Shown here: positions 9,917 to 55,253 of the stretch, piece by piece
How positions within the stretch are numbered: the stretch's first letter is position 1
How the letters are laid out: every line of letters starts with the position of its first letter
NCBI GenBank assembly: GCA_015061055.1
Contig: SUXH01000006.1
Coordinates: 60,923-124,922 of the forward strand
Direction: 5' to 3'
Origin: Bacteroidales bacterium
Lineage (GTDB): Bacteria > Bacteroidota > Bacteroidia > Bacteroidales > Muribaculaceae
Length of the DNA: 64,000 nt
Made by a program: the position numbers and the translations under genes
Notes under the pieces: generated by a model
Told to the model about the DNA's origin: nothing
Database searches by the model: none
What the model saw: only the letters and a program-made list of their open reading frames with translations

Positions 9917-12871
9917 ATGAAACAGAAATTTTACAATGGAGTACTTTTAGTGGCTATGTTATTTGCTACTATGGGATCTTTTGTTTCTTGTAAGGACTAC
10001 GATGAAGATGCGTATGCTGAATTACAAGGACAGTTAATAGATCAAAATTCTACGCTATTGGAGGCTCTTGAATCTCAAAAGCAGTCAATGCAAGCGCAGA
10101 TTGATGCATTGAGACAAGCACAAGAGGCTTGTCAAACAAACTGCCAATTGTGGCAACAACAAATGGAGATCTGGAAAACTCAGATTGAAAATTGGCAGAA
10201 AGAAATCAATGAATGGAAATCTCAACTTGATAATCACTATGTAACAAGAGAAGAGTACAATGCAAAAGTTGCAGAATTGGAAGGCAAGATTAGTTCATTG
10301 ACAAATCAAATGATTGCTTGTACTGAAGATATTGCAAACTTAAAGGCAAGAGACGTTCAATTGGATAGCGCTATTAATGCTGTTGATGCAAATCTTAAAG
10401 ATCTTATTAAGCAGGAAGATGATAAAATCTGGGATGCATTAAGAGCTTTGGAAAGTTCAGTAGCAACAACTGTTTATGTTGATTCGCTTGCAAATAGCAT
10501 TGTAAATCAAATCCAAGATTTGAAAACTGATTTGCAAAATGCAATTGATACAAACACTGCAATGTTGGCTGATTCTATTGGTGATGTTAAGACTGAGTTG
10601 GTTGCTTTGATAAGTGACTTAGAGCAAAGAGTTGCCGCAAATGAAACTGCTATCGAGTCATTGAATAGCACTGTAACAAACTTGAGAACTTCAATTGTTG
10701 GTATTGAAGTATTGTTGAATGAAACAGTTTTAGCTGTAGAAAAAGTTCAAGCACTTGCTGAAGCTGATTCAATCAGAATTGATGCTTTAGTATCTGAATT
10801 TGAAACTTTGTCGGAAACACTTGGTGAACTAAAGCAACAGCATAAGGAAGATGTTGACAGTATCTGTGATGAATTATCTTCAATTAAAGATAGTGTAGAT
10901 GCAGTTGCTGCACTTGCACGAGAAAACTTAGTGTTGGCTAATAATTATACCGATAACCGTATTGAAGTGTTGCGCACTGAAATGTTGGATTCTGTTGCAG
11001 GTCTAAATGTGAAAATTGGAGCTTTGGAAGCTGCATACAAAGAAGCTGATGCCAAACTTCAAGAACAAATCGATGACTTGGCTGATAGATTAGATGATTT
11101 GGAACCTCGAGTTGAAGCTAACGAAAAAGCAATTGAAACAATTTCAGAAAAGATTGCTGAATTGGCTGATAGAGTAGATAAGGTTGAGGAATCGATGAAG
11201 CAATTTATTACCGGTATAATTCTTCAAGGAACAGAAAATCCTGTATTTGGTTCATTTGCATTGCCGTTTAATATCAAGAGTAATGTGTTGATGGCTTATT
11301 ATGGTTACGCAGGAAGCTACGGAATTGAATTCCCAACAAAATATCCTCGTTACTATGTAAACGATGCGGAAGTCCTTTCTGAAAAGGATCTTGAAATGCT
11401 TGGTGTAGCATCTGAAAGGTTGGCTGAAGATGGTGAAGCCATTGTAAGCGGAGCAGGTAAGGTTTATGTAACAGTAAATCCATCAAGTGTAAACTTTGAA
11501 GGACAAACTCTTCCTATCGTAAATAGTATTGAAGAAGAATCGGGAATCAAACTATCTCCACTTCAATATTCAGATAAAAAACTTACATTCGGATATTCAA
11601 GATCGGAAGAAAATGGACTATATGAAGCAGAAGCTACTTTAGCTACTGAAGATATTGAAAAGGTTAGTATGAAGTTTGACTTTGACGCGGCTGATATTAA
11701 AGCTACAGTTAAAGATATACTTAACCCGACTGATGGTGTAAATGTAACTAATGTAGCTAATACAATGGTTGACGTGTTAAATCAGTTTAATCAAAAGCTT
11801 GATGCAAATGCGTTGAAAGCTTCATGGACCGATTCATTAGGTGTAAAGCGTAATGTTTATTCAGAGTACAATATTGCAGCTACAGCTATTAAGCCATTGT
11901 CATATAGTTTCTTGAAGGATTATAAGGTTAGTTCATTGCCAGGAATTGAAAGAGCTGAAAGCTTTATCAATAAAGTAGCTGATAAGGTTAAGGTTAATTT
12001 ACCGGACTTTAATCTAAATATAGAAGTTCCAACAATCAAGAAAATTGAAATTGTAGAATTGTCGGATGAATTACTTGCCGAGTTTAAGTTCTTGATAGAT
12101 ATGGATACTACAATCACAATTCCGGTAGATACAATTAAAATTGATGCTTACGACAAAAATGGAAATAAGGTTGATGTTAAACCTGTAGTTGTAGGTGGAC
12201 AATCTGTTGAAATTTGGGTAACAGAAGTTATCGATATGAGAGATGAAGTTGAGGACTTCTATGCTGAAATAGAAAAGCCTATAGAGGATGTAAATCAAAT
12301 CTTGGAAGATCTTGAAGCATTTATGGATGATGTTAACGATCTTCTTGATGAAATTAATAAGTTGAACGATTTCATTGTAGATATCGAAACCGGTGTTAAT
12401 AAAGTACAAGACAAATTGATTTCATATTTGAACAAGTTTAATAACAAGATGTGTGATTTGATAAATTCAGCAAATAAAGTTCTTCAACCAACTCTATTAG
12501 TAAAGAGTGAAGGTTCATTTGCAAAATTGAGTCAATCATTGAATTATCCATCAAAGATTAATGGCACAGACTTTACACTTGTTCCAACATCATATACAGC
12601 AGAAATTATAGCTCCAGCATATAAGAAACTGGTAGGTGTAACAAATGTATATTCAATGGATTATACTAAGAATGCACAAGTAAATGGCGGTGAATATTTA
12701 ACTGCATTGAAAGATGCAAATGCTAAGGAAGGTGTTGCTGAAATCTTAGAAGGAGATACTAATTTAGTAAACTTCTCTATTAAGCCAGGATATATTTACG
12801 AAGTAACTTACACAAGTGTAGACTTTAGCGGTATGGTTGCTGCTAAGAAGTTCTATGTAACTGTAAAGTAA
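9917..12871 (+). CDS. 984-aa lipoprotein with an N-terminal ~420-aa coiled coil and an uncharacterised C-terminal region
   Basis: Lipobox FVSC. Long heptad-like stretches (QLWQQQMEIWKTQIENWQKEINEWKSQL...). I recognise no catalytic motif. Confidence 0.6.
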   Translation: MKQKFYNGVLLVAMLFATMGSFVSCKDYDEDAYAELQGQLIDQNSTLLEALESQKQSMQAQIDALRQAQEACQTNCQLWQQQMEIWKTQIENWQKEINEWKSQLDNHYVTREEYNAKVAELEGKISSLTNQMIACTEDIANLKARDVQLDSAINAVDANLKDLIKQEDDKIWDALRALESSVATTVYVDSLANSIVNQIQDLKTDLQNAIDTNTAMLADSIGDVKTELVALISDLEQRVAANETAIESLNSTVTNLRTSIVGIEVLLNETVLAVEKVQALAEADSIRIDALVSEFETLSETLGELKQQHKEDVDSICDELSSIKDSVDAVAALARENLVLANNYTDNRIEVLRTEMLDSVAGLNVKIGALEAAYKEADAKLQEQIDDLADRLDDLEPRVEANEKAIETISEKIAELADRVDKVEESMKQFITGIILQGTENPVFGSFALPFNIKSNVLMAYYGYAGSYGIEFPTKYPRYYVNDAEVLSEKDLEMLGVASERLAEDGEAIVSGAGKVYVTVNPSSVNFEGQTLPIVNSIEEESGIKLSPLQYSDKKLTFGYSRSEENGLYEAEATLATEDIEKVSMKFDFDAADIKATVKDILNPTDGVNVTNVANTMVDVLNQFNQKLDANALKASWTDSLGVKRNVYSEYNIAATAIKPLSYSFLKDYKVSSLPGIERAESFINKVADKVKVNLPDFNLNIEVPTIKKIEIVELSDELLAEFKFLIDMDTTITIPVDTIKIDAYDKNGNKVDVKPVVVGGQSVEIWVTEVIDMRDEVEDFYAEIEKPIEDVNQILEDLEAFMDDVNDLLDEINKLNDFIVDIETGVNKVQDKLISYLNKFNNKMCDLINSANKVLQPTLLVKSEGSFAKLSQSLNYPSKINGTDFTLVPTSYTAEIIAPAYKKLVGVTNVYSMDYTKNAQVNGGEYLTALKDANAKEGVAEILEGDTNLVNFSIKPGYIYEVTYTSVDFSGMVAAKKFYVTVK

Positions 12872-47395: not shown

Positions 47396-49168
47396 ATGAA
47401 ATCGTTTGTGAAAAGTGTGTTTCCTTTGTTCGGGTTGTTGATGTACCTAACATTTATATCTTGTTCCGATGACCCCGAGATTGAAAAACCACAGTTTGAG
47501 ATGTCGATGAACAAAACCACTTTGGCTCTCGAAGTGGGAACATCAGAAACTTTGGTAGTGTCTTATAATCCTTCTGATACACCCAATCAAGGTCACACTT
47601 GGGGCAGTAGCAAACCGGAAATTGCAACAGTAGATGAAACAGGTAAGGTGACGGCAAAAGCGATAGGGGAGTGTACCGTTACAGCGAGAAGTTTATCAGG
47701 CAATGTAACAACTACTTGTAAAATTCAGGTGGTGGATAAAATTATCAGAGTTACATCGGTAAGCCTGAATAAAATAGCAGCAGAAATCGCTACGGGGGAA
47801 ACGTTGGCTTTGGAAGCAACCATACTTCCAAGCAATGCCACAAATAAAGGAGTTAAATGGACATCAAGTTCCAATGAAGTGGCAACAGTGGATGCGAAAG
47901 GTGTGGTTTCAGCCGTAGCAGAAGGTGAAACAACCATCACCGTGACCACAGATGATAATAACAAAAAAGCAACTTGCAAATTAACCGTTGTTCCTGTGGG
48001 TGTAAAATTTTCTGAGCCAAAGATAGAAAACGTTACCTCTAATTCAGCTTTGATAATAGGCAGTATAGAGCCGAGAGGTGTAAAAATAACAGAAGCGGGT
48101 ATTTGCGTAGCCACAACATCTACACCTACTGTGGATAATGGAAAAATGATGTTATTGCAGGGCGGTTGCACTATATCAACGGTATTAAAAGATTTAAAAG
48201 CAGAAACGACCTATTATCTTCGTTTCTATGCTATTGTAGATGGTAAAGTAAGATATGGAAATCAAACGGTGTTTGAAACACTTCCTGCAGTAACCATTTC
48301 AGCTCCAACTTTCACTGATATATTGGCACATTCTGCTACTGTTAATGGTACAATTTCAGCTAATGGCTCTAATTTAACTGAAACCGGTATCGTATATTCA
48401 AAAACGTCAATGCCCACTATTGCTGACACAAAAGTAGCTGTTTCATCAGAAAAAATTTCATATTCGTTGATGGAACTTGAGGCTTCAACCACATACTATG
48501 TGCGAATATACACAGTTATAGGTGATAAAACGTATTATGGAGAACAAGCAGAATTAGTAACGTGTGATGAACTTATCACACATTTTGAACCATATAGTTA
48601 TAGTTTTGAAGATCATACTAATGACCAATGGGGATATATACATGAATACGGTTATCAGACAATATATATGAAATCTAAAGCACCGAGAGGTTATAAAACC
48701 GTAAATATTTGTTATGCACCAACCAATGAACCTAAAATTACGCATTATACAAAGGCTTTAACTGTAAGCGATGATGGCTATATATATTTTGAGTTACGGA
48801 TTTATTCAGAATATAATCAAGATTATATGGGATTTGATAGTGTATGGAGAATTAGATCATATACAATTACTGGATCTAAGGTAGAATATTCAGATGATAT
48901 GGTAACAATAGCTCCTGTTCTATTTAAGTTTGAATCAATTTTGCCTGATATAGGAAATCGGATGTGTATAGCTGGATTAAGATCTTCTTCAGGTTGCGTT
49001 TATTATAAAAATTTACCGGAAGGATTATATGAATTAATTAAATCTGGAATAACTAACAAAGAATACGAAGAAGGACCTTCTGGTTATTGGTATAAGCATG
49101 AAGAAAGAAACTTCACTTTAAAGCATTTGGAATCGGGAATAACATTTGAATATAAAAAATCTGAATAA
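47396..49168 (+). CDS. 590-aa lipoprotein: two Big_2 Ig-like domains, two Fn3-like repeats and a unique C-terminal domain
   Basis: Lipobox FISC. Big_2-like modules at about aa 30-200, then two ~90-aa repeats ending ..TTYYLRFYA / ..TTYYVRIYT. Its stop is 9 nt before the next gene. Confidence 0.65.
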   Translation: MKSFVKSVFPLFGLLMYLTFISCSDDPEIEKPQFEMSMNKTTLALEVGTSETLVVSYNPSDTPNQGHTWGSSKPEIATVDETGKVTAKAIGECTVTARSLSGNVTTTCKIQVVDKIIRVTSVSLNKIAAEIATGETLALEATILPSNATNKGVKWTSSSNEVATVDAKGVVSAVAEGETTITVTTDDNNKKATCKLTVVPVGVKFSEPKIENVTSNSALIIGSIEPRGVKITEAGICVATTSTPTVDNGKMMLLQGGCTISTVLKDLKAETTYYLRFYAIVDGKVRYGNQTVFETLPAVTISAPTFTDILAHSATVNGTISANGSNLTETGIVYSKTSMPTIADTKVAVSSEKISYSLMELEASTTYYVRIYTVIGDKTYYGEQAELVTCDELITHFEPYSYSFEDHTNDQWGYIHEYGYQTIYMKSKAPRGYKTVNICYAPTNEPKITHYTKALTVSDDGYIYFELRIYSEYNQDYMGFDSVWRIRSYTITGSKVEYSDDMVTIAPVLFKFESILPDIGNRMCIAGLRSSSGCVYYKNLPEGLYELIKSGITNKEYEEGPSGYWYKHEERNFTLKHLESGITFEYKKSE

Positions 49169-49177
49169 ATTTAATCT

Positions 49178-49732
49178 ATGGATTTACTAAATCGTCGTAA
49201 ATTTTTTAGAGAAGCAGGAAAAAGGGTGTTACCGATTCTTGGGGCTATAGCCTTTGGTGGGAGTTTTTTGTCTTGTGAGAAAGATGAACCTACTAGTTGT
49301 GGCAATTCATGTATGGGCAGTGCTCAAAAGGGATGTGGGACGAGTTGTAGCAGTTCGTGTATTGGCTCTGCTAAGAATGGCTGTGGAAGTGGTTGCATGA
49401 CAACGTGTAATGACGGTTGCTCCAATTCATGCCTAAATACAGCAAAAAGCAGTACATGTTCCAATTGTTCATCGTCATGTAGTAGTTCGTGCAGTACTAC
49501 TTGCGAAGGTAATTGTAAGGGAACTTCAACATCATCGGGTTGTAGTGGCTGTAGCAATGCTTGCAGTGAGGCTTGCTCGCAAACGTGTGATCACACTTGC
49601 CGAACAGGCTGTAAGGTATCGTGTCAATTAGCATGTACGACTTCTTGTATTGGAGGTTGTGATACGTCATGTCTTGGCACTTGTAACAGAACATGCCAAT
49701 ATACTTGTAAAAACTCTTCGATGTTTGAGTGA
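49178..49732 (+). CDS. Cys-repeat (CxxxC array) protein A with a twin-arginine signal and lipobox
   Basis: NRRKFFREAGKRVLPILGAIAFGGSFLSC, followed by about 31 Cys spaced mostly every 4th residue (..CGTSCSSSCIGSAKNGCGSGCMTTCNDGCSNSC..). Confidence 0.75.
   Translation: MDLLNRRKFFREAGKRVLPILGAIAFGGSFLSCEKDEPTSCGNSCMGSAQKGCGTSCSSSCIGSAKNGCGSGCMTTCNDGCSNSCLNTAKSSTCSNCSSSCSSSCSTTCEGNCKGTSTSSGCSGCSNACSEACSQTCDHTCRTGCKVSCQLACTTSCIGGCDTSCLGTCNRTCQYTCKNSSMFE
49298..49708 (+). repeat. 12-nt periodic TGY codon array (Cys every 4th codon)
   Basis: TGT/TGC recur with a 12-nt period. The intervening codons are diverse, so this is not a recent slippage array. Confidence 0.8.
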
Positions 49733-49743
49733 GTTAAATAACG

Positions 49744-49806
49744 TTTGGCAGTTCTGGGTGGCTGAAAATATCACTATTATAGTTGCGAAGGACTGCCAAC
49801 CTGCTA
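49744..49806 (+). pseudogene. remnant of the 5' end of a radical SAM maturase gene
   Basis: tttggcagttctgggtggctgaaaatatcactattatagttgcgaaggactgccaacctgct aligns at about 80% identity with 50237-50299 of the intact maturase. That segment encodes SWQSGMAKNITFIVTKDCQLA. The remnant frame reads ..NITIIVAKDCQPAKNK-stop. Confidence 0.7.
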
Positions 49807-49850
49807 AGAATAAATGATTCATTAGTACAAAATAATAAATAATAGGGATT

Positions 49851-50195
49851 ATGGAAGAGAATAAAAAGAAAAAAGAATTACAATCTCGTCGTGAATTCTT
49901 TAAAAAAGCAGCTAAAAAGGCATTACCTATTCTTGCAACAATGGCTCTTGCTAATGTGCCACAAATTATGAAAGCGAGTGAAGAAGCACCTTCGGATTGT
50001 AGATATGGTTGTGCTTATAGTTGTTTGTATGGGTGTTCAGGTTCTTGTAATAATTCATGTTCAGGTTCTTGCAATATTTCTTGCGTAGGAACTTGTAGTG
50101 GAGGTTGTCAAGGGTGTTATACCGGGTGTCAAGGTTCTTGTAAATTAGGATGTAGAGATAACTGTTCTGTTGGTTGTTATTTATATTGTGGATAA
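49851..50195 (+). CDS. Cys-repeat (CxxxC array) protein B with a twin-arginine signal
   Basis: SRREFFKKAAKKALPILATMALANVPQIMKA, followed by 17 Cys in the last 65 residues (CRYGCAYSCLYGCSGSCNNSCSGSCNISCVGTCSGGCQGCYTGCQGSCKLGCRDNCSVGCYLYCG). Confidence 0.8.
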   Translation: MEENKKKKELQSRREFFKKAAKKALPILATMALANVPQIMKASEEAPSDCRYGCAYSCLYGCSGSCNNSCSGSCNISCVGTCSGGCQGCYTGCQGSCKLGCRDNCSVGCYLYCG

Positions 50196-50200
50196 TTTTA

Positions 50201-51385
50201 ATGAATAAAATAAAAGAACAGAGTTTGTCATGGCAGTCCGGAATGGCTAAAAATATAACTTTTATAGTTACGAAGGATTGCCAACTTGCTTGCAAGTATT
50301 GTTATCTTGTGGGCAAGAATGAAAAAGAAAGAATGTCGTGGGAGGTCGCCAAACAAGCTGTCGATTATATTCTTGATAATGAATATGATGAAAATTTCAA
50401 TTATGAATCGGTTGTGTGGGACTTTATCGGTGGTGAGCCGTTCCTTGAAATTGAACTTATTGATAAAATATGCGATTATATAAAAACGGAGATGTTCCAT
50501 AGAAATCATCATTGGTTTGATTCTTATCGTTTCAGTTTTTCTACCAATGGAATAAACTACGATTCAGAGAAAGTACAGAATTTCATCAAGAAGAATCATT
50601 CTCATTTATCGATAGGGATAACTATAGACGGTACACAGAAGAAACACGACATGAATCGTATATGGAAAAGCGAGGGTAGCGAGGAAAAAGGCTCATATGT
50701 CGATGTGGTGCGAAACATACCGTTGTGGTTAGAGCAATTTCCCAATGCCGGTACGAAAGTGACGATAAGCAGTGCCGATATTCCATATATAAAGGAAAGT
50801 GTGCTACATTTGTATTCGCTTGGTATTCATGAAGTGAATATAAATGTGGTGTTTGAGGATGTGTGGAATGAAGGTGATGACGTCTTGTTTGAAAATCAAT
50901 TGATTCAACTTGCTGATTCCATTATAGAGAACGAGTATTACAAAGACTTTGCCTGTTCGTTTTTTACCGAGAATATGGGTAAACCTATGGATTGCGTGTT
51001 GGAGAATCAAAATTGGTGTGGTGCCGGTAAAATGTTATCTATTGATGCTGCTGGTAATTTCTATCCATGTACCCGTTTTGCTCAATACTCATTACGTGAT
51101 AAAAAAGCGTGGATTATCGGTAATGTACGTTATGGAATAGATAAAAATAAGTTGCGTCCGTTCTTAACACTTGACCGTTGTACACAATCCACACAAGAGT
51201 GTATCGATTGTGAGGTGGCAGGCGGTTGTGCATGGTGTCAAGGTGAAAACTATGACGTAGCCGATACCCCTACGATATATCAACGTTCTACAGCTATATG
51301 CAAAATGCACAAAGCACGTGTGAGAGCCAATAACTATTATTGGAACAAACTTTATCGCAAACTTGAACTTGAAAGCCATGATTAA
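50201..51385 (+). CDS. radical SAM / SPASM-domain peptide maturase (CXXX-repeat target type)
   Basis: I prefer the ATG at 50201, 5 nt after the stop of protein B. CQLACKYC (CX3CX2C) motif. C-terminal SPASM-type cysteines: CGAGKMLSIDAAGNFYPC and CIDCEVAGGCAWC. Confidence 0.85.
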   Translation: MNKIKEQSLSWQSGMAKNITFIVTKDCQLACKYCYLVGKNEKERMSWEVAKQAVDYILDNEYDENFNYESVVWDFIGGEPFLEIELIDKICDYIKTEMFHRNHHWFDSYRFSFSTNGINYDSEKVQNFIKKNHSHLSIGITIDGTQKKHDMNRIWKSEGSEEKGSYVDVVRNIPLWLEQFPNAGTKVTISSADIPYIKESVLHLYSLGIHEVNINVVFEDVWNEGDDVLFENQLIQLADSIIENEYYKDFACSFFTENMGKPMDCVLENQNWCGAGKMLSIDAAGNFYPCTRFAQYSLRDKKAWIIGNVRYGIDKNKLRPFLTLDRCTQSTQECIDCEVAGGCAWCQGENYDVADTPTIYQRSTAICKMHKARVRANNYYWNKLYRKLELESHD

Positions 51386-52343
51386 ATATTTAGTGATATT
51401 GCTTGATGATACTTCAGTATCATATTGTCATTATGAGAACAATAAGGCTGAACGTAAACTTATTTCACTCGAAGACTTGAATGAAGGGATATTTTATGCA
51501 ATGAAAGAAAATCTGTCCATTCAGTTTGTATATCCTGATTATGAGTTACCGGCAGAATATAAGGACGCAATTAATACAGTAGACCATAGTTGCGTGAAAC
51601 CATACGCCAAGGGAGTGAAAGCCGATGTATTGGTTATTAATGATATAGATAAACTTGGTAATGTGGATTGGCAACAAGATACAGCCTATGTTCTTCGTGT
51701 TGATAAGTCTAAACTATTTGCTTTTTACCAGAATATAATTTCTGTTTTGCCTAAGGTTATGCGTTTAAATGTGGTACTTACTGATGTTGAGACATTTACA
51801 GAATGTGATTTTGATGCATATAGAAAACTTTTGACAGAATTGGCTGATGTTGTAAAAACGGAATACGTAAGAGGGCGAATAGTGCAATTTAATTTGCTTT
51901 CTGATCGCATTATGCTAGATGCAATGAATAATTGCAACGCAGGGGTGGAAAATATTACTCTTGCGACCGATGGAAGATTTTATATTTGTCCCGGATTCTA
52001 TTTTGCTGAGGATGATGCAGATTTTGGATTAGGAAAAGCAAAGTTTAGTGTAGGAGATTTAAAAAATGGGCTTGATATAAAAAATTCACAATTATATCGC
52101 ATGACACATGCTCCTATTTGCAGAAAATGTGACGCATATCAATGCAAGCGTTGTGTGTGGTTGAACCGTAAGACAACGTATGAAGTAAACACACCAAGTC
52201 ATGAACAGTGCGTAGTGGCTCACCTTGAACGTAATGTATCTAGAGAGTTGTTGAAAGGTATTCGTGAATATGGAGAGTTTATGCCCGAAAAAGAAATTAA
52301 AGAGATAGATTATATAGACCCGTTTAATATTGTAAAAGACTAA
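51378..52343 (+). CDS. SPASM-only paralogue lacking the CX3CX2C motif (pseudo-radical-SAM accessory protein)
   Basis: The ATG at 51378 overlaps the maturase stop (ATGATTAA). The N-terminal region has a single Cys (SVSYCHYEN). The C-terminal cluster is kept: CNAG..DGRFYIC, CRKCDAYQCKRC, EQC. Confidence 0.7.
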   Translation: MIKYLVILLDDTSVSYCHYENNKAERKLISLEDLNEGIFYAMKENLSIQFVYPDYELPAEYKDAINTVDHSCVKPYAKGVKADVLVINDIDKLGNVDWQQDTAYVLRVDKSKLFAFYQNIISVLPKVMRLNVVLTDVETFTECDFDAYRKLLTELADVVKTEYVRGRIVQFNLLSDRIMLDAMNNCNAGVENITLATDGRFYICPGFYFAEDDADFGLGKAKFSVGDLKNGLDIKNSQLYRMTHAPICRKCDAYQCKRCVWLNRKTTYEVNTPSHEQCVVAHLERNVSRELLKGIREYGEFMPEKEIKEIDYIDPFNIVKD

Positions 52344-52349
52344 ATCGAT

Positions 52350-52622
52350 ATGAGAAAAGTTGTAGGCAGTGTAACTGTAGAAGAAAAGAATGAAATTCAG
52401 GCTCTATTTGAGCGTAGAAACGGATTGAATGAACTTGCTAAGATTCTTACCGTAGAAAATACCGAACTTTATGAGAAACTCGTAAAAGATATGGGTGAAA
52501 CCGGTACTAAGTTTCAGAATTGGTGGAATCGTATGAGTTCAAAATACCAATGGGAAAGCATTGAAGGTGGAAATTGGGAAATTGATTTCGAGACATGTGA
52601 AATCTATTTGATTAAGCCGTAG
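52350..52622 (+). CDS. 90-aa acidic Trp-rich protein, last gene of the Cys-repeat operon
   Basis: It starts 6 nt after the previous stop and has no signal peptide. Sequence includes ..FQNWWNRMSSKYQWESIEGGNWEIDFETCEIYLIKP. Confidence 0.6.
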   Translation: MRKVVGSVTVEEKNEIQALFERRNGLNELAKILTVENTELYEKLVKDMGETGTKFQNWWNRMSSKYQWESIEGGNWEIDFETCEIYLIKP

Positions 52623-52671
52623 TCTTAGATATACGAGGAATAAGATTTCTCTGGGGAGTGGATATAAGGTA

Positions 52672-52704
52672 AGTGCCGACTGTCGCGAGACAGTCGGCAC
52701 TTTG
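52672..52704 (+). terminator. strong hairpin terminator closing the Cys-repeat operon
   Basis: agtgccgactgtc gcga gacagtcggcact is a perfect 13-bp stem, followed by ttgtg. Confidence 0.75.
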
Positions 52705-52925: not shown

Positions 52926-55253
52926 ATGTGTAGAAAGATAAATATATTTTTTATTATTTTTTGTGTGAGTGTGGCTATGGTCGTATGTGGCTGTAGTTCA
53001 ACAAAGCATGTACAAGGCAGTGATTTGCTCGTGGATAAGGTGAGCATAAATGTTCTTGATAATAAAGAATTTAAAGAAGCCGATTTGTATAATTACCTTC
53101 GTCAGGTACCAAATCACTCGGTTCTTGGAGGATTGAAATTACAGTTGGGACTGTATAATTTGTCGGGGCGTGATAGCACAAAGCGAGTGAATCGTTGGCT
53201 TCGTGGTATGGGTGAAGCTCCTGTTATATATAATTCTAAACTTACTGAAGCATCTAAAAAGGAAATAACCCGATATTTTGTGAATAAGGGGTATCTGAGT
53301 GCGACTGTAGAAGTGGATACTATGGTTGATGTAAACAAGCGTAAAGTGGAGGTGGTATATAATGTAACAACGGGAAAACCACATTACATAGCATCGATAA
53401 ATTATGATATTCCGAATGATGCGTTAAGGGAAATAATCCTATCGGATACGGTGAGAGCAAAACTTAAGCCTAATATGCTGTTTGATCGTAATGTTATGAG
53501 TGAGCAGCGAGATGATTACACGAGAATGTTGCGTGAGAAAGGGTATTATGCTTTTGACAAGGAGTATATCACGTTTGTAGCTGATACAACAGAAGGTAGT
53601 AACGAGGTGGAGCTTACGATGAAAGCTACTAATCCTCGTGAAAACAAGAACTTGCCATTCTATACAGAACATAAACCGTTCTATGTGAGAAACATTGTGT
53701 TTGTTACCGACTATGATCCATCAAAGTCATACGAAATAGACTCCAATAGTGTTGTCGATTCGTTGTTATATCAAGGAATAATTGTCCTTTATGGTGACGA
53801 TCGTTATATCAGAAGGCGAGCATTGAAAGAGTGTTGCTTTCTTGAGCGTGGTGGATTATATAATTCGGCCGACGTAACAAAAACATATCAAGCATTGAGC
53901 CGTTTAGGGATTTTGAAATTTGTAAATATAGAGATAAAACCTGTGGGTGAAATCGCCGGAAAGGCTTGGCTTGATGCTTATGTGTTACTTACACCGGGTA
54001 AGTCTCAGTCGGTATCGTTGTCACTAGAAGGAACTAACTCCGAAGGAGACCTTGGTTTTGGTGTCGGTGCGGGATATCAGCATCGAAATATATTTGGGGG
54101 CTCGGAAGTGCTTGATACTAAGTTTCGTGCATCGTACGAAAGTTTGTCGGGAGATTTTAGCGGTCTTATCAATGATAATTATTCAGAGTATTCGGGTGAG
54201 GTGGGAATCACTTATCCTAAGTTTAAAGCACCTTTCTTGAGCAGTAAGTTTAAACAGAAAATACTTGCTTCGACAGAAATATCTTCTCAATTTAATTATC
54301 AAGAGCGACCTGAATATACCCGTATCATAGCGGGAGCCGCGTATAAATATATATGGAAAGAACGTAGCCGAAATACTCGTCACACAGTAACATTGCTTGA
54401 TGTAAGTTATGTGTATTTGCCTGAGAGTAAGATTAATTTTCTTGATAGTATACAGAATCCGTTGTTGAGGTATTCTTACGAGGATCACTTCATTATGCGA
54501 TTGGGTTATTCGTTCTATCATAGTAATAAGAAAGAGCGTGACCTTTTGACTTCGTTGTTTCAAGAGAATGTGTATACTGTGAGGGCCGGAGTGGAAACGG
54601 CAGGTAATGTACTGTACGGAATATCGAATATGATAGGTAGTGAGAAGAAAGATGGTGCATATGAAGTGTTTGGAATACGTTATTCCCAATATGCGAAATT
54701 TGACTTTGATTATTCGTTGACACATAATTTCAATAGAAAAAGTTCGGTTGCATTCAGAGTGGGATTAGGGGCTGCTGTACCATACGGAAATTCAACGGTA
54801 CTTCCATTTGAGAAACGATTTTATGCCGGAGGGGCAAACAGTGTGCGTGGTTGGGGAGTGAGAACACTTGGTCCCGGTAGCTATAATGGAGTAAACTCAG
54901 TGAATAGTTTTATATATCAATGCGGTGATGTGAGATTTGATATAAATTTGGAATATCGAACAAAATTATTTTGGGTGATTGAACTTGGTGCGTTTATTGA
55001 TGCAGGAAATATATGGACAATAAAGGATTATGAAGACCAACCCGGAGGTGTGTTTAAATTCGATGAATTTTATAAGCAGATAGCAGCGTCTTACGGACTT
55101 GGACTTCGATTGGATTTTGATTATTTCTTGCTTCGATTTGATGTGGGTATGAAGGCTTATAATCCTGCACAAGGACAAGAGAGGTGGCCATTGTTTGAGC
55201 CACGATTGAAACGTGATGCTGCATTTCATTTCTCGGTAGGTTATCCGTTCTAA
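52926..55253 (+). CDS. BamA/TamA (Omp85) family outer-membrane protein with a lipoprotein-type signal (TamL-like)
   Basis: 775 aa. N-terminal ...VAMVVCGCSS lipobox, POTRA-like region, and a C-terminal Omp85 barrel (RFYAGGANSVRGW ... FHFSVGYPF). Confidence 0.75.
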   Translation: MCRKINIFFIIFCVSVAMVVCGCSSTKHVQGSDLLVDKVSINVLDNKEFKEADLYNYLRQVPNHSVLGGLKLQLGLYNLSGRDSTKRVNRWLRGMGEAPVIYNSKLTEASKKEITRYFVNKGYLSATVEVDTMVDVNKRKVEVVYNVTTGKPHYIASINYDIPNDALREIILSDTVRAKLKPNMLFDRNVMSEQRDDYTRMLREKGYYAFDKEYITFVADTTEGSNEVELTMKATNPRENKNLPFYTEHKPFYVRNIVFVTDYDPSKSYEIDSNSVVDSLLYQGIIVLYGDDRYIRRRALKECCFLERGGLYNSADVTKTYQALSRLGILKFVNIEIKPVGEIAGKAWLDAYVLLTPGKSQSVSLSLEGTNSEGDLGFGVGAGYQHRNIFGGSEVLDTKFRASYESLSGDFSGLINDNYSEYSGEVGITYPKFKAPFLSSKFKQKILASTEISSQFNYQERPEYTRIIAGAAYKYIWKERSRNTRHTVTLLDVSYVYLPESKINFLDSIQNPLLRYSYEDHFIMRLGYSFYHSNKKERDLLTSLFQENVYTVRAGVETAGNVLYGISNMIGSEKKDGAYEVFGIRYSQYAKFDFDYSLTHNFNRKSSVAFRVGLGAAVPYGNSTVLPFEKRFYAGGANSVRGWGVRTLGPGSYNGVNSVNSFIYQCGDVRFDINLEYRTKLFWVIELGAFIDAGNIWTIKDYEDQPGGVFKFDEFYKQIAASYGLGLRLDFDYFLLRFDVGMKAYNPAQGQERWPLFEPRLKRDAAFHFSVGYPF

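Follow-up and report, generated by a model that had tools for sequence, protein, structure and literature searches.

Twin-arginine signals on Cys-x-x-x repeat proteins and linkage of their maturation genes to tatA-tatC in Bacteroidales

In most relatives of the locus described here, tatA and tatC lie inside the conserved gene block of a radical SAM/SPASM system that accompanies Cys-rich target proteins, a linkage which is a new finding. In the 64-kb window, by which we mean the whole stretch of DNA analysed, two such targets (precursors A and B) carry Cys-Xaa-Xaa-Xaa repeats and are encoded directly upstream of the radical SAM gene. With a probability of roughly 0.7, both are CXXX-repeat substrates that are modified in the cytoplasm and exported by Tat, after which B would be cleaved by signal peptidase I and A would be lipidated and sent to the cell surface. 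The Tat signals on the substrates and the presence of tatAC in the cluster of relatives make modification inside the cell, followed by Tat export, the probable order of events.

By its family matches, the locus is a member of the catalogued "CXXX-repeat peptide modification system" (NCBIfam/TIGRFAMs): TIGR04115, TIGR04119 and TIGR04116 were all matched far above cut-off, with Cys-x-x-x targets directly upstream. RefSeq gives homologues of the window proteins these family names, and the family itself is defined by computation only. No experimental paper on the system was found in the literature searched, and a Bacteroidales RiPP-mining paper makes no mention of it; Tat export, a lipoprotein class and tatAC linkage are absent from the family names as well as from that literature. 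Among the scanned species genomes, 524 encode a relative of the system, the carriers being dominant gut Bacteroidales (Segatella copri, Prevotella, Muribaculaceae, Bacteroides and Alistipes).

The precursors and their operon

The features of the locus are collected in Table 1. The N-terminus of precursor A, MDLLNRRKFFREAGKRVLPILGAIAFGGSFLSC, runs from NRRKFFR through a hydrophobic region (VLPILGAIAFGGSFLS) to FLS-C33, while that of precursor B, MEENKKKKELQSRREFFKKAAKKALPILATMALANVPQIMKA, followed after the predicted cleavage point by SEE, runs from SRREFFKK through its own hydrophobic region (ALPILATMALANVPQI) to IMKA and Ser. A preliminary description of this DNA had reported both ORFs, the position of Cys33 and an N-terminal pattern common to the two proteins, RR.FF...A.K..LPIL; the ORFs and the cysteine are present as given, and the pattern was confirmed by alignment. 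The difference in array length that it noted also holds (~137-145 residues in A vs 64 in B). Its "strict" period of four is nearly kept in precursor B, where 15 of the 16 gaps between 17 cysteines equal 4, and was overstated for precursor A, whose 32 cysteines are spaced 8,4,8,4,4,8,4,4,4,4,9,3,4 and so on, a gap of 4 being dominant (23/31).

Table 1. Features of the CXXX-repeat locus, in window coordinates
Feature	Position	Strand	Basis
Big_2-domain lipoprotein, 590 aa	47396..49168	+	signal ...LTFIS-C-SDDPE
Precursor A, 184 aa	49178..49732	+	ORF and translation
Precursor A, twin-arginine motif N-RR-KFFR	49190-49210	+	
Precursor A, lipobox F-L-S-C, Cys33	49274-49276	+	
Precursor A, LES-like E-K-D-E	49277-49288	+	
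Precursor A, Cys array C41-C177	49298-49708	+	
Non-coding relic of the rSAM gene 5' end	49750..49808	+	~85% identical to 50228-50290 (alignment)
Precursor B, 114 aa	49851..50195	+	ORF and translation
Precursor B, twin-arginine motif S-RR-EFFK	49884-49904	+	
Precursor B, predicted signal peptidase I site M-K-A/S, after Ala42	49974-49976	+	
Precursor B, Cys array C50-C113	49998-50189	+	
Radical SAM/SPASM maturase (rSAM), CXXX-repeat target family	50201..51385	+	TIGR04115
"CXXX repeat peptide maturase", 321 aa	51378..52343	+	TIGR04119
CXXX-repeat system accessory protein, 90 aa	52350..52622	+	TIGR04116
Hairpin, perfect 14-bp stem, 4-nt loop	52671..52702	+	repeat search

On the target model TIGR04117 ("Syntroph_Cxxx"), precursor A scores 45.7 bits and precursor B 46.6, both below the cut-off of 50; they are related to the targets of this narrow model and lie outside it. 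An exact-sequence look-up found neither window precursor in the collection, and two homologues carry the RefSeq names "Cys-Xaa-Xaa-Xaa repeat radical SAM target protein" and "hypothetical".

The genes for the 321-aa and 90-aa proteins follow directly 3' of the rSAM gene on the same strand, the 321-aa protein of the earlier account being the ATG-start form (51378) of a 326-aa ORF. The hairpin stands 49 nt 3' of the 90-aa gene, at the place where most relatives have tatA-tatC, and is the likely end of the operon; a promoter/terminator consensus scan gave no excess over chance. The relic, which lies between the two precursor genes, resembles a scar left by duplication or insertion of the precursor cassette. 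Upstream, the gene for the Big_2 lipoprotein stops 9 nt 5' of precursor A and is possibly co-transcribed with it. Homologues of this lipoprotein are also encoded directly 5' of lipobox-class precursors at two related loci, L079 (an A-type orthologue) and L039.

Twin-arginine signals, cleavage classes and tatA-tatC linkage

A Tat signal combines (S/T)-R-R-x-F-L-K in a charged n-region with a moderately hydrophobic h-region and a c-region that holds the cleavage site. Both leaders fit the expression RR.[FGAVML][LITMVF], which we take to be that of TatP, with Phe at motif position +4 in A and B vs Leu in the consensus. Their h-regions are 15-16 residues long, with a mean Kyte-Doolittle value of 1.2 in precursor B and 2.0 in precursor A. 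The generic models TIGR01409 and PF10518 gave no match to the full proteins nor, even at E <= 10, to the isolated N-termini, HMMER filters being such that short weak matches are dropped.

Conservation was assessed in 135 unique precursors from 80 related Bacteroidales loci and the window. The leader consensus S-R-R-(E/D)-F-F-K-K-A-A-K-x-A-L-P-I-L-G is nearly invariant in this set, and precursor B agrees with it at nearly all positions. All 135 precursors have R0 and 133 of them R+1, the remaining two having RK; F+3, F+4 and K/R+5 are each found in 130, L+12 in 120 and P+13 in 128 precursors, S/T-1 in 115 of 134, and a Lys or Arg occurs in the c-region of 90/135 homologues. The preliminary description had proposed aligning homologues to see whether the leader stays constant as the arrays vary in repeat number, and the alignment shows that it nearly does: twin arginines are kept in 133/135 precursors while array size ranges from 9 to 47 Cys. 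A gap of 4 accounts for 87.6% of the 2270 spacings within these arrays.

A wider search and a scan of the related loci gave the same picture. A leader profile built from two sequences retrieved 547 representatives (50% clustering), and RR is present in 148 of the best 149 of these, the remaining one being N-terminally truncated. Across 934 kb of related loci, RR.[FGAVML][LITMVF] stands 5' of the array in 135 of 143 Cys-array ORF segments; the 8 exceptions are one RK variant, one scan artefact and, for the rest, fragments that are truncated or carry frameshifts, and all remaining ORFs together yielded just 6 weak Tat-like matches. The twin-arginine motif upstream of the Cys arrays is not due to chance.

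The two cleavage types first noticed in precursors A and B are recurrent classes among the 135 precursors and not one-offs. A lipobox Cys lies at RR+26 to RR+29 in about 25/135 (at RR+27 in 21, as in precursor A), and most members of this class have 2-4 acidic residues at +2 to +6 after the Cys; a further 17 lipobox-class precursors were found among the 50%-clustered representatives. Most of the other ~105 precursors have (V/S)-K-A just before the array. A Cys at RR+17 in Segatella-type precursors (LPILG-C) was also considered as a lipobox and dropped, because the hydrophobic region continues beyond it. The optimal form of the Bacteroidetes surface-export signal (LES) is C-X-K-(D/E)2-X (PMC5080379), to which C-E-K-D-E-P of precursor A is an exact fit, so that this protein combines the two marks of Bacteroidetes surface lipoproteins, lipobox and LES.

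Of the 72 loci that could be evaluated, 61 have tatA and tatC behind the 90-aa gene, in the same orientation and at a median gap of 24 nt. At locus L030, for example, tatA reaches 60.1 on TIGR01411 (cut-off 53.9) and tatC 152 on TIGR00945 (cut-off 132.7). Genes outside the conserved block are each common to 1-5 loci only and the outer flanks differ; likewise, flank synteny is not conserved between the window and related loci. The 64-kb window contains no tatA or tatC nor other Tat substrates, and ten other loci are likewise without adjacent tatAC; for this reason, the dependence on Tat is, for this host, an assumption. TatA and TatC do occur in Bacteroides species (PMC6281302). The view of the preliminary description that the N-termini are Tat signal peptides is thus strengthened by S-R-R-x-F-F-K in essentially all homologues, by the tatA-tatC pair in the block of most relatives and by the recurrence of both cleavage types.

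The RR N-terminus could also be a cytoplasmic RiPP leader that resembles a Tat signal, its products being exported otherwise or kept in the cell. Such a reading would suit the silence of the generic Tat HMMs (subject to their filtering of short weak matches), the lack of tatAC in the window operon and the RefSeq names, which are just "radical SAM target protein" or "hypothetical". It is made highly improbable by the tatA-tatC linkage in relatives, by the complete n-, h- and c-region architecture, and by signal peptidase I sites or lipoboxes at a fixed distance from RR which, together with acidic LES-like tails, suit exported proteins only.

The maturation system and the role of the leader

The maturation system would consist of rSAM, a SPASM paralogue devoid of the SAM cluster and the 90-aa accessory protein. 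rSAM scores 631.2 bits on TIGR04115 (cut-off 350) and has an intact radical-SAM core; its homologues form >8000 clusters at 90% identity and are 79-99% identical across Bacteroidales families. PapB is its second-best NCBIfam match, with 193.4 bits on model NF047865, below the cut-off of 340. Among relatives of solved structure, CteB is the best match (5wgg, E = 3e-22), query residues 14-375 being aligned to chain residues 94-443. Since the alignment begins at CteB residue 94, the N-terminal domain of CteB (residues 1-93), which we take to be an RRE, has no counterpart in rSAM.

The 321-aa protein (TIGR04119, 241.6 bits; cut-off 150) matches rSAM by BLASTP with E = 5e-5, residues 133-238 vs 212-314, which identifies it at the sequence level as a paralogue of the C-terminal (SPASM) half. 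A single Cys (SYCHY) stands at the CxxxCxxC site of the SAM cluster, and therefore the protein probably does not cleave SAM; the SPASM cysteines are kept. Its AF2 model has a mean pLDDT of 58, with a beta/alpha N-terminal half at 70-94 and a low-confidence, disordered SPASM half, and Foldseek returned weak TIM-barrel, anSME and CteB matches only. Model and matches fit a degenerate rSAM paralogue and allow no further conclusion.

The 90-aa protein (TIGR04116, 106.2 bits; cut-off 50) has 7130 homologue clusters (E <= 0.001), with 79-100% identity among the 120 matches listed. It may bind the leader or act as an escort, and was modelled by AF2 with pLDDT 76 and a beta-alpha4-beta2 topology for which Foldseek found no match in the PDB at E < 1. 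The preliminary description had drawn an analogy with chaperones of the TorD or NapD type. Structural kinship of the 90-aa protein with NapD, TorD or PqqD is not supported, there being no Pfam match and only Foldseek matches with E > 1, and it was rejected as a demonstrable member of these families; it may have an analogous function. A PqqD-like RRE was likewise found neither by Pfam in the 90-aa or 321-aa proteins nor by Foldseek at E < 1 in the 90-aa protein. The N-terminal half of the 321-aa model is beta/alpha. The models are of moderate quality, which leaves room for a divergent RRE.

In the proposed pathway, the precursors would be synthesised with a twin-arginine signal peptide and their Cys-x-x-x arrays modified in the cytoplasm. 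By analogy with PapB, CteB and QhpD, this modification would most likely consist of many intramolecular thioether-type cross-links. The Cys-X3-Asp link of PapB is ruled out as the main reaction because Asp (2.9%) and Glu (2.1%) together make up just 5% of the cores, in which residue i+4 is Cys. The rigid product would then leave through the Tat translocon, which accepts folded cargo. Signal peptidase I would free B after M-K-A, whereas the lipoprotein pathway would lipidate A at Cys33, its C-E-K-D-E tag directing it, as we infer, to the cell surface.

Cys accounts for 21% of the residues in the cores, and Gly, Ser and Thr separate the cysteines; this composition also invites comparison with metal- or Fe-S-binding modules such as metallothionein or Csp1, a Tat-exported copper storage protein. 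The arrays would then be exported cofactor-loaded, as is typical of Tat cargo, and the SPASM proteins would load or remodel clusters, a role which the second "maturase", with its SPASM cysteines and without a SAM-cluster motif, might fill. This alternative is improbable given that the radical-SAM core of rSAM is intact, that PapB, CteB, SCIFF maturases and QhpD, the closest characterised relatives, all make Cys thioethers, and that a dedicated rSAM conserved at 79-99% favours covalent substrate chemistry.

Returning to cytoplasmic modification before Tat export, the question arises of what the maturase recognises. Signal peptides normally diverge fast. Here, the conservation of AAKxALPILG (P+13 in 128/135) appears to go well beyond the needs of Tat targeting, and between signal peptide and array no further conserved segment was found in the 135 precursors. 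It is plausible from these alignments that the leader is a maturase-recognition element; in our judgement, the odds are about even that the maturase complex also uses this over-conserved signal peptide to recognise its substrate and to retain it up to the point of modification. AAKxALPILG conservation, the lack of any other conserved leader, an rSAM without the CteB N-terminal domain and the precedent of bufferins lend such a double duty indirect support.

Alternatively, the N-terminus may be a Tat signal and nothing else, with the maturase reading the Cys-x-x-x core itself without a leader. Anaerobic sulfatase-maturating enzymes offer a parallel, their target being a short motif in the core of sulfatases that bear signal peptides. 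The extra conservation of AAKxALPILG would in that case stem from common descent, or from a preference of Tat or signal peptidase that is specific to the lineage; all precursors are homologous, and the apparent leader conservation is inflated because of this shared ancestry. In addition, an RRE-like domain was found in none of rSAM, the 321-aa and the 90-aa proteins, and high promiscuity towards the core has been described for PapB (PMC9413430), which NCBIfam scores place nearest among the characterised relatives. This simpler explanation is nevertheless rather unlikely, since, across at least six families, the cargo varies far more than the leader does, the LPIL core is identical in lipobox-class and SPase-I-class precursors, and the bufferin precedent favours the signal peptide as recognition element.

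A more far-reaching and tentative version of the double-duty reading, which we rate somewhat below even odds, is Tat-coupled maturation. The signal peptide would first serve as a RiPP-style leader, held by a complex of rSAM, pseudo-rSAM and 90-aa protein during the formation of dozens of Cys cross-links, and export would then proceed via operon-encoded TatAC. A large share of the gut Bacteroidales, Segatella copri among them, would in this way make heavily cross-linked proteins of the periplasm and lipoproteins of the cell surface. If true, no radical-SAM "RiPP-protein" class before it would have had a Tat route of its own. The system also points to a possibly abundant, protease-resistant class of surface or periplasmic proteins in the gut microbiota. 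The conserved Tat signals, the LES-tagged lipoprotein subset and the travelling tatA-tatC turn what was an annotation label into a testable pathway.

Comparison with known systems

In concept, the system is akin to those of TorD, NapD and DmsD, in that a small cytoplasmic protein encoded alongside its substrate could keep the Tat signal bound for as long as maturation lasts; NapD is also similar in size to the 90-aa protein. The 90-aa protein differs from them in having no sequence-family or fold similarity, and their maturation consists of cofactor insertion, whereas the CXXX-repeat system would, as proposed, perform covalent peptide chemistry.

Among surface lipoproteins with an LES, the neighbouring Big_2 lipoprotein has a tail of the same type (C-SDDPE) as precursor A. 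The LES lipoproteins known so far have ordinary Sec-type lipoprotein signal peptides, while in precursor A the lipobox belongs to a twin-arginine signal, a pairing known mainly from actinobacteria and haloarchaea.

The closest analogies in chemistry are the ranthipeptide systems PapA/PapB (freyrasin) and CteA/CteB, where a SPASM radical-SAM enzyme acts repeatedly on a Cys-rich ribosomal precursor, as may be the case here. PapB forms six thioethers in Cys-X3-Asp/Glu motifs (PMC9413430), the same i/i+4 register as in CXXX-repeat arrays. By contrast, rSAM stays under the NF047865 cut-off, the Asp/Glu acceptors of PapB are rare in the CXXX-repeat cores, and the CteB segment 1-93 has no equivalent. 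PapA and CteA are short leader-core peptides, whereas CXXX-repeat substrates are proteins of 83-416 aa with Tat signals, and the system adds two conserved partner proteins and tatAC.

Bufferins are the nearest parallel for the leader, as in both cases an export signal peptide replaces a classical one. These Cys-containing RiPPs are modified by an MNIO and bear Sec signal peptides; lipoproteins make up about 16% of Buf2, certain precursors are long or domain-fused, and preliminary evidence is reported that the signal peptide lies within the recognition sequence (PMC12452194). Bufferin maturation differs in relying on an MNIO plus DUF2063 instead of radical SAM/SPASM proteins, in Sec export with no translocon genes in the cluster, and in having 6 or 12 Cys as opposed to long period-4 arrays. 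Only with these Sec-dependent precursors has the idea of an export signal doubling as a RiPP leader come up so far, and the CXXX-repeat system offers a clean test of it.

The twin-arginine leader of the Cys-repeat precursors

Precursor A, the first of the two putative radical SAM substrates, starts with MDLLN-RR-KFF-REAGKRVLPILGAIAFGGSFLS-C33 (Cys33 at 49274-49276), and precursor B with ...LQS-RR-EFFKK-AAKKALPILATMALANVPQIMKA-S; a check of both ORFs, the Cys33 coordinates included, confirmed the N-termini as read in the preliminary description. Relatives of the accompanying radical SAM/SPASM enzyme (rSAM) were collected with one genome per species, which gave 524 stretches encoding them, and the best 80 of these formed the locus set. 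They are nearly all Bacteroidales (Muribaculaceae, Prevotellaceae including Segatella copri, Bacteroides, Alistipes/Rikenellaceae, Paludibacteraceae, Lentimicrobiaceae), the nearest relative among them being a Muribaculum MAG with 93% identity. All 143 Cys-array ORF segments of this set lie on the rSAM strand, and 135 carry RR.[FGAVML][LITMVF] upstream of the array; the motif is missing from fragments with a truncation or frameshift, from one RK variant, and from one scan artefact.

Conservation was counted over 135 unique full-length precursors, with positions relative to RR. The twin arginine itself is nearly invariant (position 0, R 135/135; +1, R 133/135 and K 2/135), preceded by S (105/134) or T (10/134) at -1 and followed by F at +3 and at +4 (130/135 each), K (119/135) or R (11/135) at +5, L at +12 (120/135), P at +13 (128/135), and G at +16 (92/135). 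A natural RK variant, L032 345, has S-R-K-EFFKK in place of RR in an otherwise canonical precursor. A profile built from the two window leaders alone and run against 1.84 billion representative proteins returned 547 matches at E <= 0.001. Among the best 149, at least four CxxxC motifs occur in 101 (the rest are mostly short fragments), and RR is kept in 148, the remaining one being N-terminally truncated, so that the leader passes the comparison of homologues proposed in the preliminary description, while the arrays vary.

The "strict" period-4 Cys spacing claimed earlier holds for B (15 of the 16 gaps between its 17 array Cys) but not for A (23 of 31 gaps, 32 Cys). Over the whole precursor set (83 to 416 aa, 9 to 47 Cys), spacing 4 accounts for 87.6% of 2270 Cys gaps, and S, G, or T precedes Cys in 71% of cases.

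Twelve precursors are encoded between the genes of the 321-aa and 90-aa proteins and not upstream of rSAM (L002 8540, L003 7486/7793, L008 9208, L015 8693, L017 8693, L025 6328/6678, L034 7398, L040 8531, and others). Several diverge more in the leader (e.g., RRDFFSKKILPII) and share a conserved tail at the C-terminus, ...YSGKCD(E/Q)CSDICKGSC.GSC....(K/S)DTI.FK(W/R); the between-gene precursors look like a distinct subfamily. Six loci (L024, L036, L042, L047, L060, L075) belong to MAGs that bear the labels Ruminococcus, Clostridium, Agathobaculum, or Clostridia. Their rSAM shares 81-84% identity with that of Bacteroidales, and their precursors are of typical Bacteroidales type; probably they reflect faulty binning and not true membership of the Firmicutes.

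Gene string and linkage to tatA-tatC

By ORF reading, six genes form a tight series on the + strand at 47396-52622.

Features of the Cys-repeat operon and its downstream flank
Feature	Position	Strand	Remarks
Big_2 lipoprotein, 590 aa	47396-49168	+	signal FIS-C-SDDPE
Precursor A, 184 aa	49178-49732	+	starts 9 nt past the Big_2 lipoprotein end
Precursor B, 114 aa	49851-50195	+	
Radical SAM/SPASM enzyme (rSAM)	50201-51385	+	TIGR04115
321-aa protein	51378-52343	+	ORF open from TTG at 51363; TIGR04119
90-aa protein	52350-52622	+	TIGR04116
Hairpin, perfect 14-bp	52671-52702		3' of the 90-aa gene, between operon and TamL gene
TamL gene	52926-55253		next gene after the operon; NF052279, 770 bits

TamL is the lipoprotein counterpart of TamA in Bacteroidetes, and its neighbourhood downstream of the operon is not kept in related loci. 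The spacer 3' of precursor A contains a stretch (49750-49808) about 85% identical to the 5' ~60 nt of the rSAM coding sequence (50228-50290), with the translation WQFWVAENITIIVAKDCQPAKNK* against SWQSGMAKNITFIVTKDCQLACKYC in rSAM; it looks like a scar of precursor cassettes duplicated or inserted jointly with the rSAM 5' junction.

A scan for Tat components placed a TatA-like ORF directly 3' of the 90-aa gene in most loci. In Segatella copri (L030), this ORF scores 60.1 bits against TIGR01411 (cut-off 53.9), and the following ORF 152 bits against the TatC model TIGR00945 (cut-off 132.7). With tblastn, tatA was found on the same strand in 61 of the 72 loci with enough downstream sequence, at a median distance of 24 nt from the 90-aa gene, and tatC is also present in those 61 save where the locus is cut. 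Genes that flank the precursors upstream or lie past tatC are each common to only 1-5 loci; therefore, the block precursors-rSAM-321-90-tatA-tatC moves as a unit. This linkage is strong guilt-by-association evidence for use of the RR leaders by Tat. Adjacent tatAC are absent in the window, in L001, which is closest to it, and in nine further loci, and no tat genes were found within the 64-kb window; TatA and TatC are generally present in Bacteroides species (PMC6281302). Mainly from leader conservation and the tatAC linkage in relatives, the earlier reading of the A and B leaders as Tat signals is well supported. In L075, a second tatA-like gene (10504-10740, - strand) lies about 1 kb past the operon-linked tatC and in opposite orientation; the operon-linked tatAC may be either the housekeeping copy or a dedicated one.

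Two cleavage classes

In about 25 of the 135 precursors, a lipobox Cys lies 26-29 residues past the first Arg (exactly 27 in 21, A included); (L/F/I/V)-(T/S/L/M)-(S/G) stands before it and acidic residues come after it, as in C-EIDEP, C-SKDDEE, C-DKEDDE, and C-ERDDDE; a further 17 members of this class were found among representative proteins. In most of the other ~105, including B, the hydrophobic region ends in (V/S/M)-K-A, followed by (A/S)-E and the array. The tail of A, C-E-K-D-E-P, exactly matches C-X-K-(D/E)2-X, the optimal Bacteroidetes lipoprotein export signal, which drives surface exposure (PMC5080379). With its Cys at RR+27 as in the recurrent class and this acidic tail, the lipobox proposed for A stands: A is a well-supported predicted lipoprotein, probably exposed at the cell surface.

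Some lipobox-class members have a non-Cys domain of ~130-150 aa inserted between lipobox and array, or extra domains (representatives P0319, P0348, P0389; L055 4739, 240 aa; L037 4717, 416 aa; L038 4010, 366 aa); thus, the same leader would export folded domains too. P0364 has a C-terminal domain without Cys. Long precursors of a Segatella/Prevotella subgroup contain a Cys within the hydrophobic region (LPILG-C-MMLP), at RR+17 in L019, L030, L044, L061, L062, L070, L071, and L078 and at RR+18 in L042, which resembles a lipobox but is located too early. Homologues of the Big_2 lipoprotein in L079 (1688-2875) and L039 (1403-2215), with 35% and 28% identity, lie directly upstream of lipobox-class precursors, the L079 precursor being an A-type orthologue; the Big_2 lipoprotein may act at the surface as a partner of Cys-array proteins of the lipoprotein class.

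Modification enzymes and a possible double duty of the leader

On their NCBIfam scores, rSAM (TIGR04115, 631 bits, cut-off 350), the 321-aa protein (TIGR04119, 242 bits, cut-off 150), and the 90-aa protein (TIGR04116, 106 bits, cut-off 50) belong to the "CXXX-repeat peptide modification system"; A and B (45.7 and 46.6 bits) fall slightly below the cut-off of 50 of the target model TIGR04117. The family was already catalogued, and this locus is one of its ordinary members. Homologous precursors are named in databases only "Cys-Xaa-Xaa-Xaa repeat radical SAM target protein" or "hypothetical protein", and no experimental work on the family was found in the literature searched; its export biology appears so far undescribed and lends itself to direct testing.

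The 321-aa protein shares homology (E = 5e-5) with the C-terminal half of rSAM, the part containing SPASM. It has one Cys (SYCHY) at the place of the CxxxCxxC motif, and the most fitting reading is a paralogue without the SAM cluster. Across Bacteroidales families, identity is unusually high for rSAM (76-99%) and the 90-aa protein (62-100%), and far lower for the 321-aa partner (43-95%). The closest solved structure to rSAM is CteB (5wgg, E = 3e-22). Residues 14-375 of rSAM align with CteB 94-443, and since the alignment begins only there, rSAM lacks the N-terminal domain of CteB, which is the RiPP-recognition domain (RRE) of that enzyme.

It is reasonable to propose that the leader may serve both as Tat signal and as recognition element for the maturase. 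AAKxALPILG is conserved far past generic Tat needs while the cargo diverges rapidly, the lipobox class is otherwise unconserved from the signal peptide to the first array Cys, and no RRE is detectable in rSAM, the 321-aa, or the 90-aa protein. Bufferins offer a precedent: preliminary evidence is reported that their signal peptide belongs to the recognition sequence, and ~16% of Buf2 bufferins are lipoproteins (PMC12452194). Against such a double duty, shared ancestry of the precursors inflates the apparent conservation, and PapB is highly tolerant towards core sequence (PMC9413430). The chaperone analogy to NapD/TorD drawn in the preliminary description is functional speculation only, as the AF2 model of the 90-aa protein (pLDDT 76, topology beta-alpha4-beta2) matched no PDB fold below E = 1.

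The characterised enzymes nearest to rSAM form Cys thioethers; among them, the PapB model gives 193 bits, under its cut-off of 340. Asp and Glu make up only 5% of the cores and residue i+4 is another Cys, which excludes the Cys-X3-Asp reaction of PapB as the main one here; Ser, Thr, Gly, and Asn, which are abundant, may provide the acceptors, or other Cys chemistry may operate.
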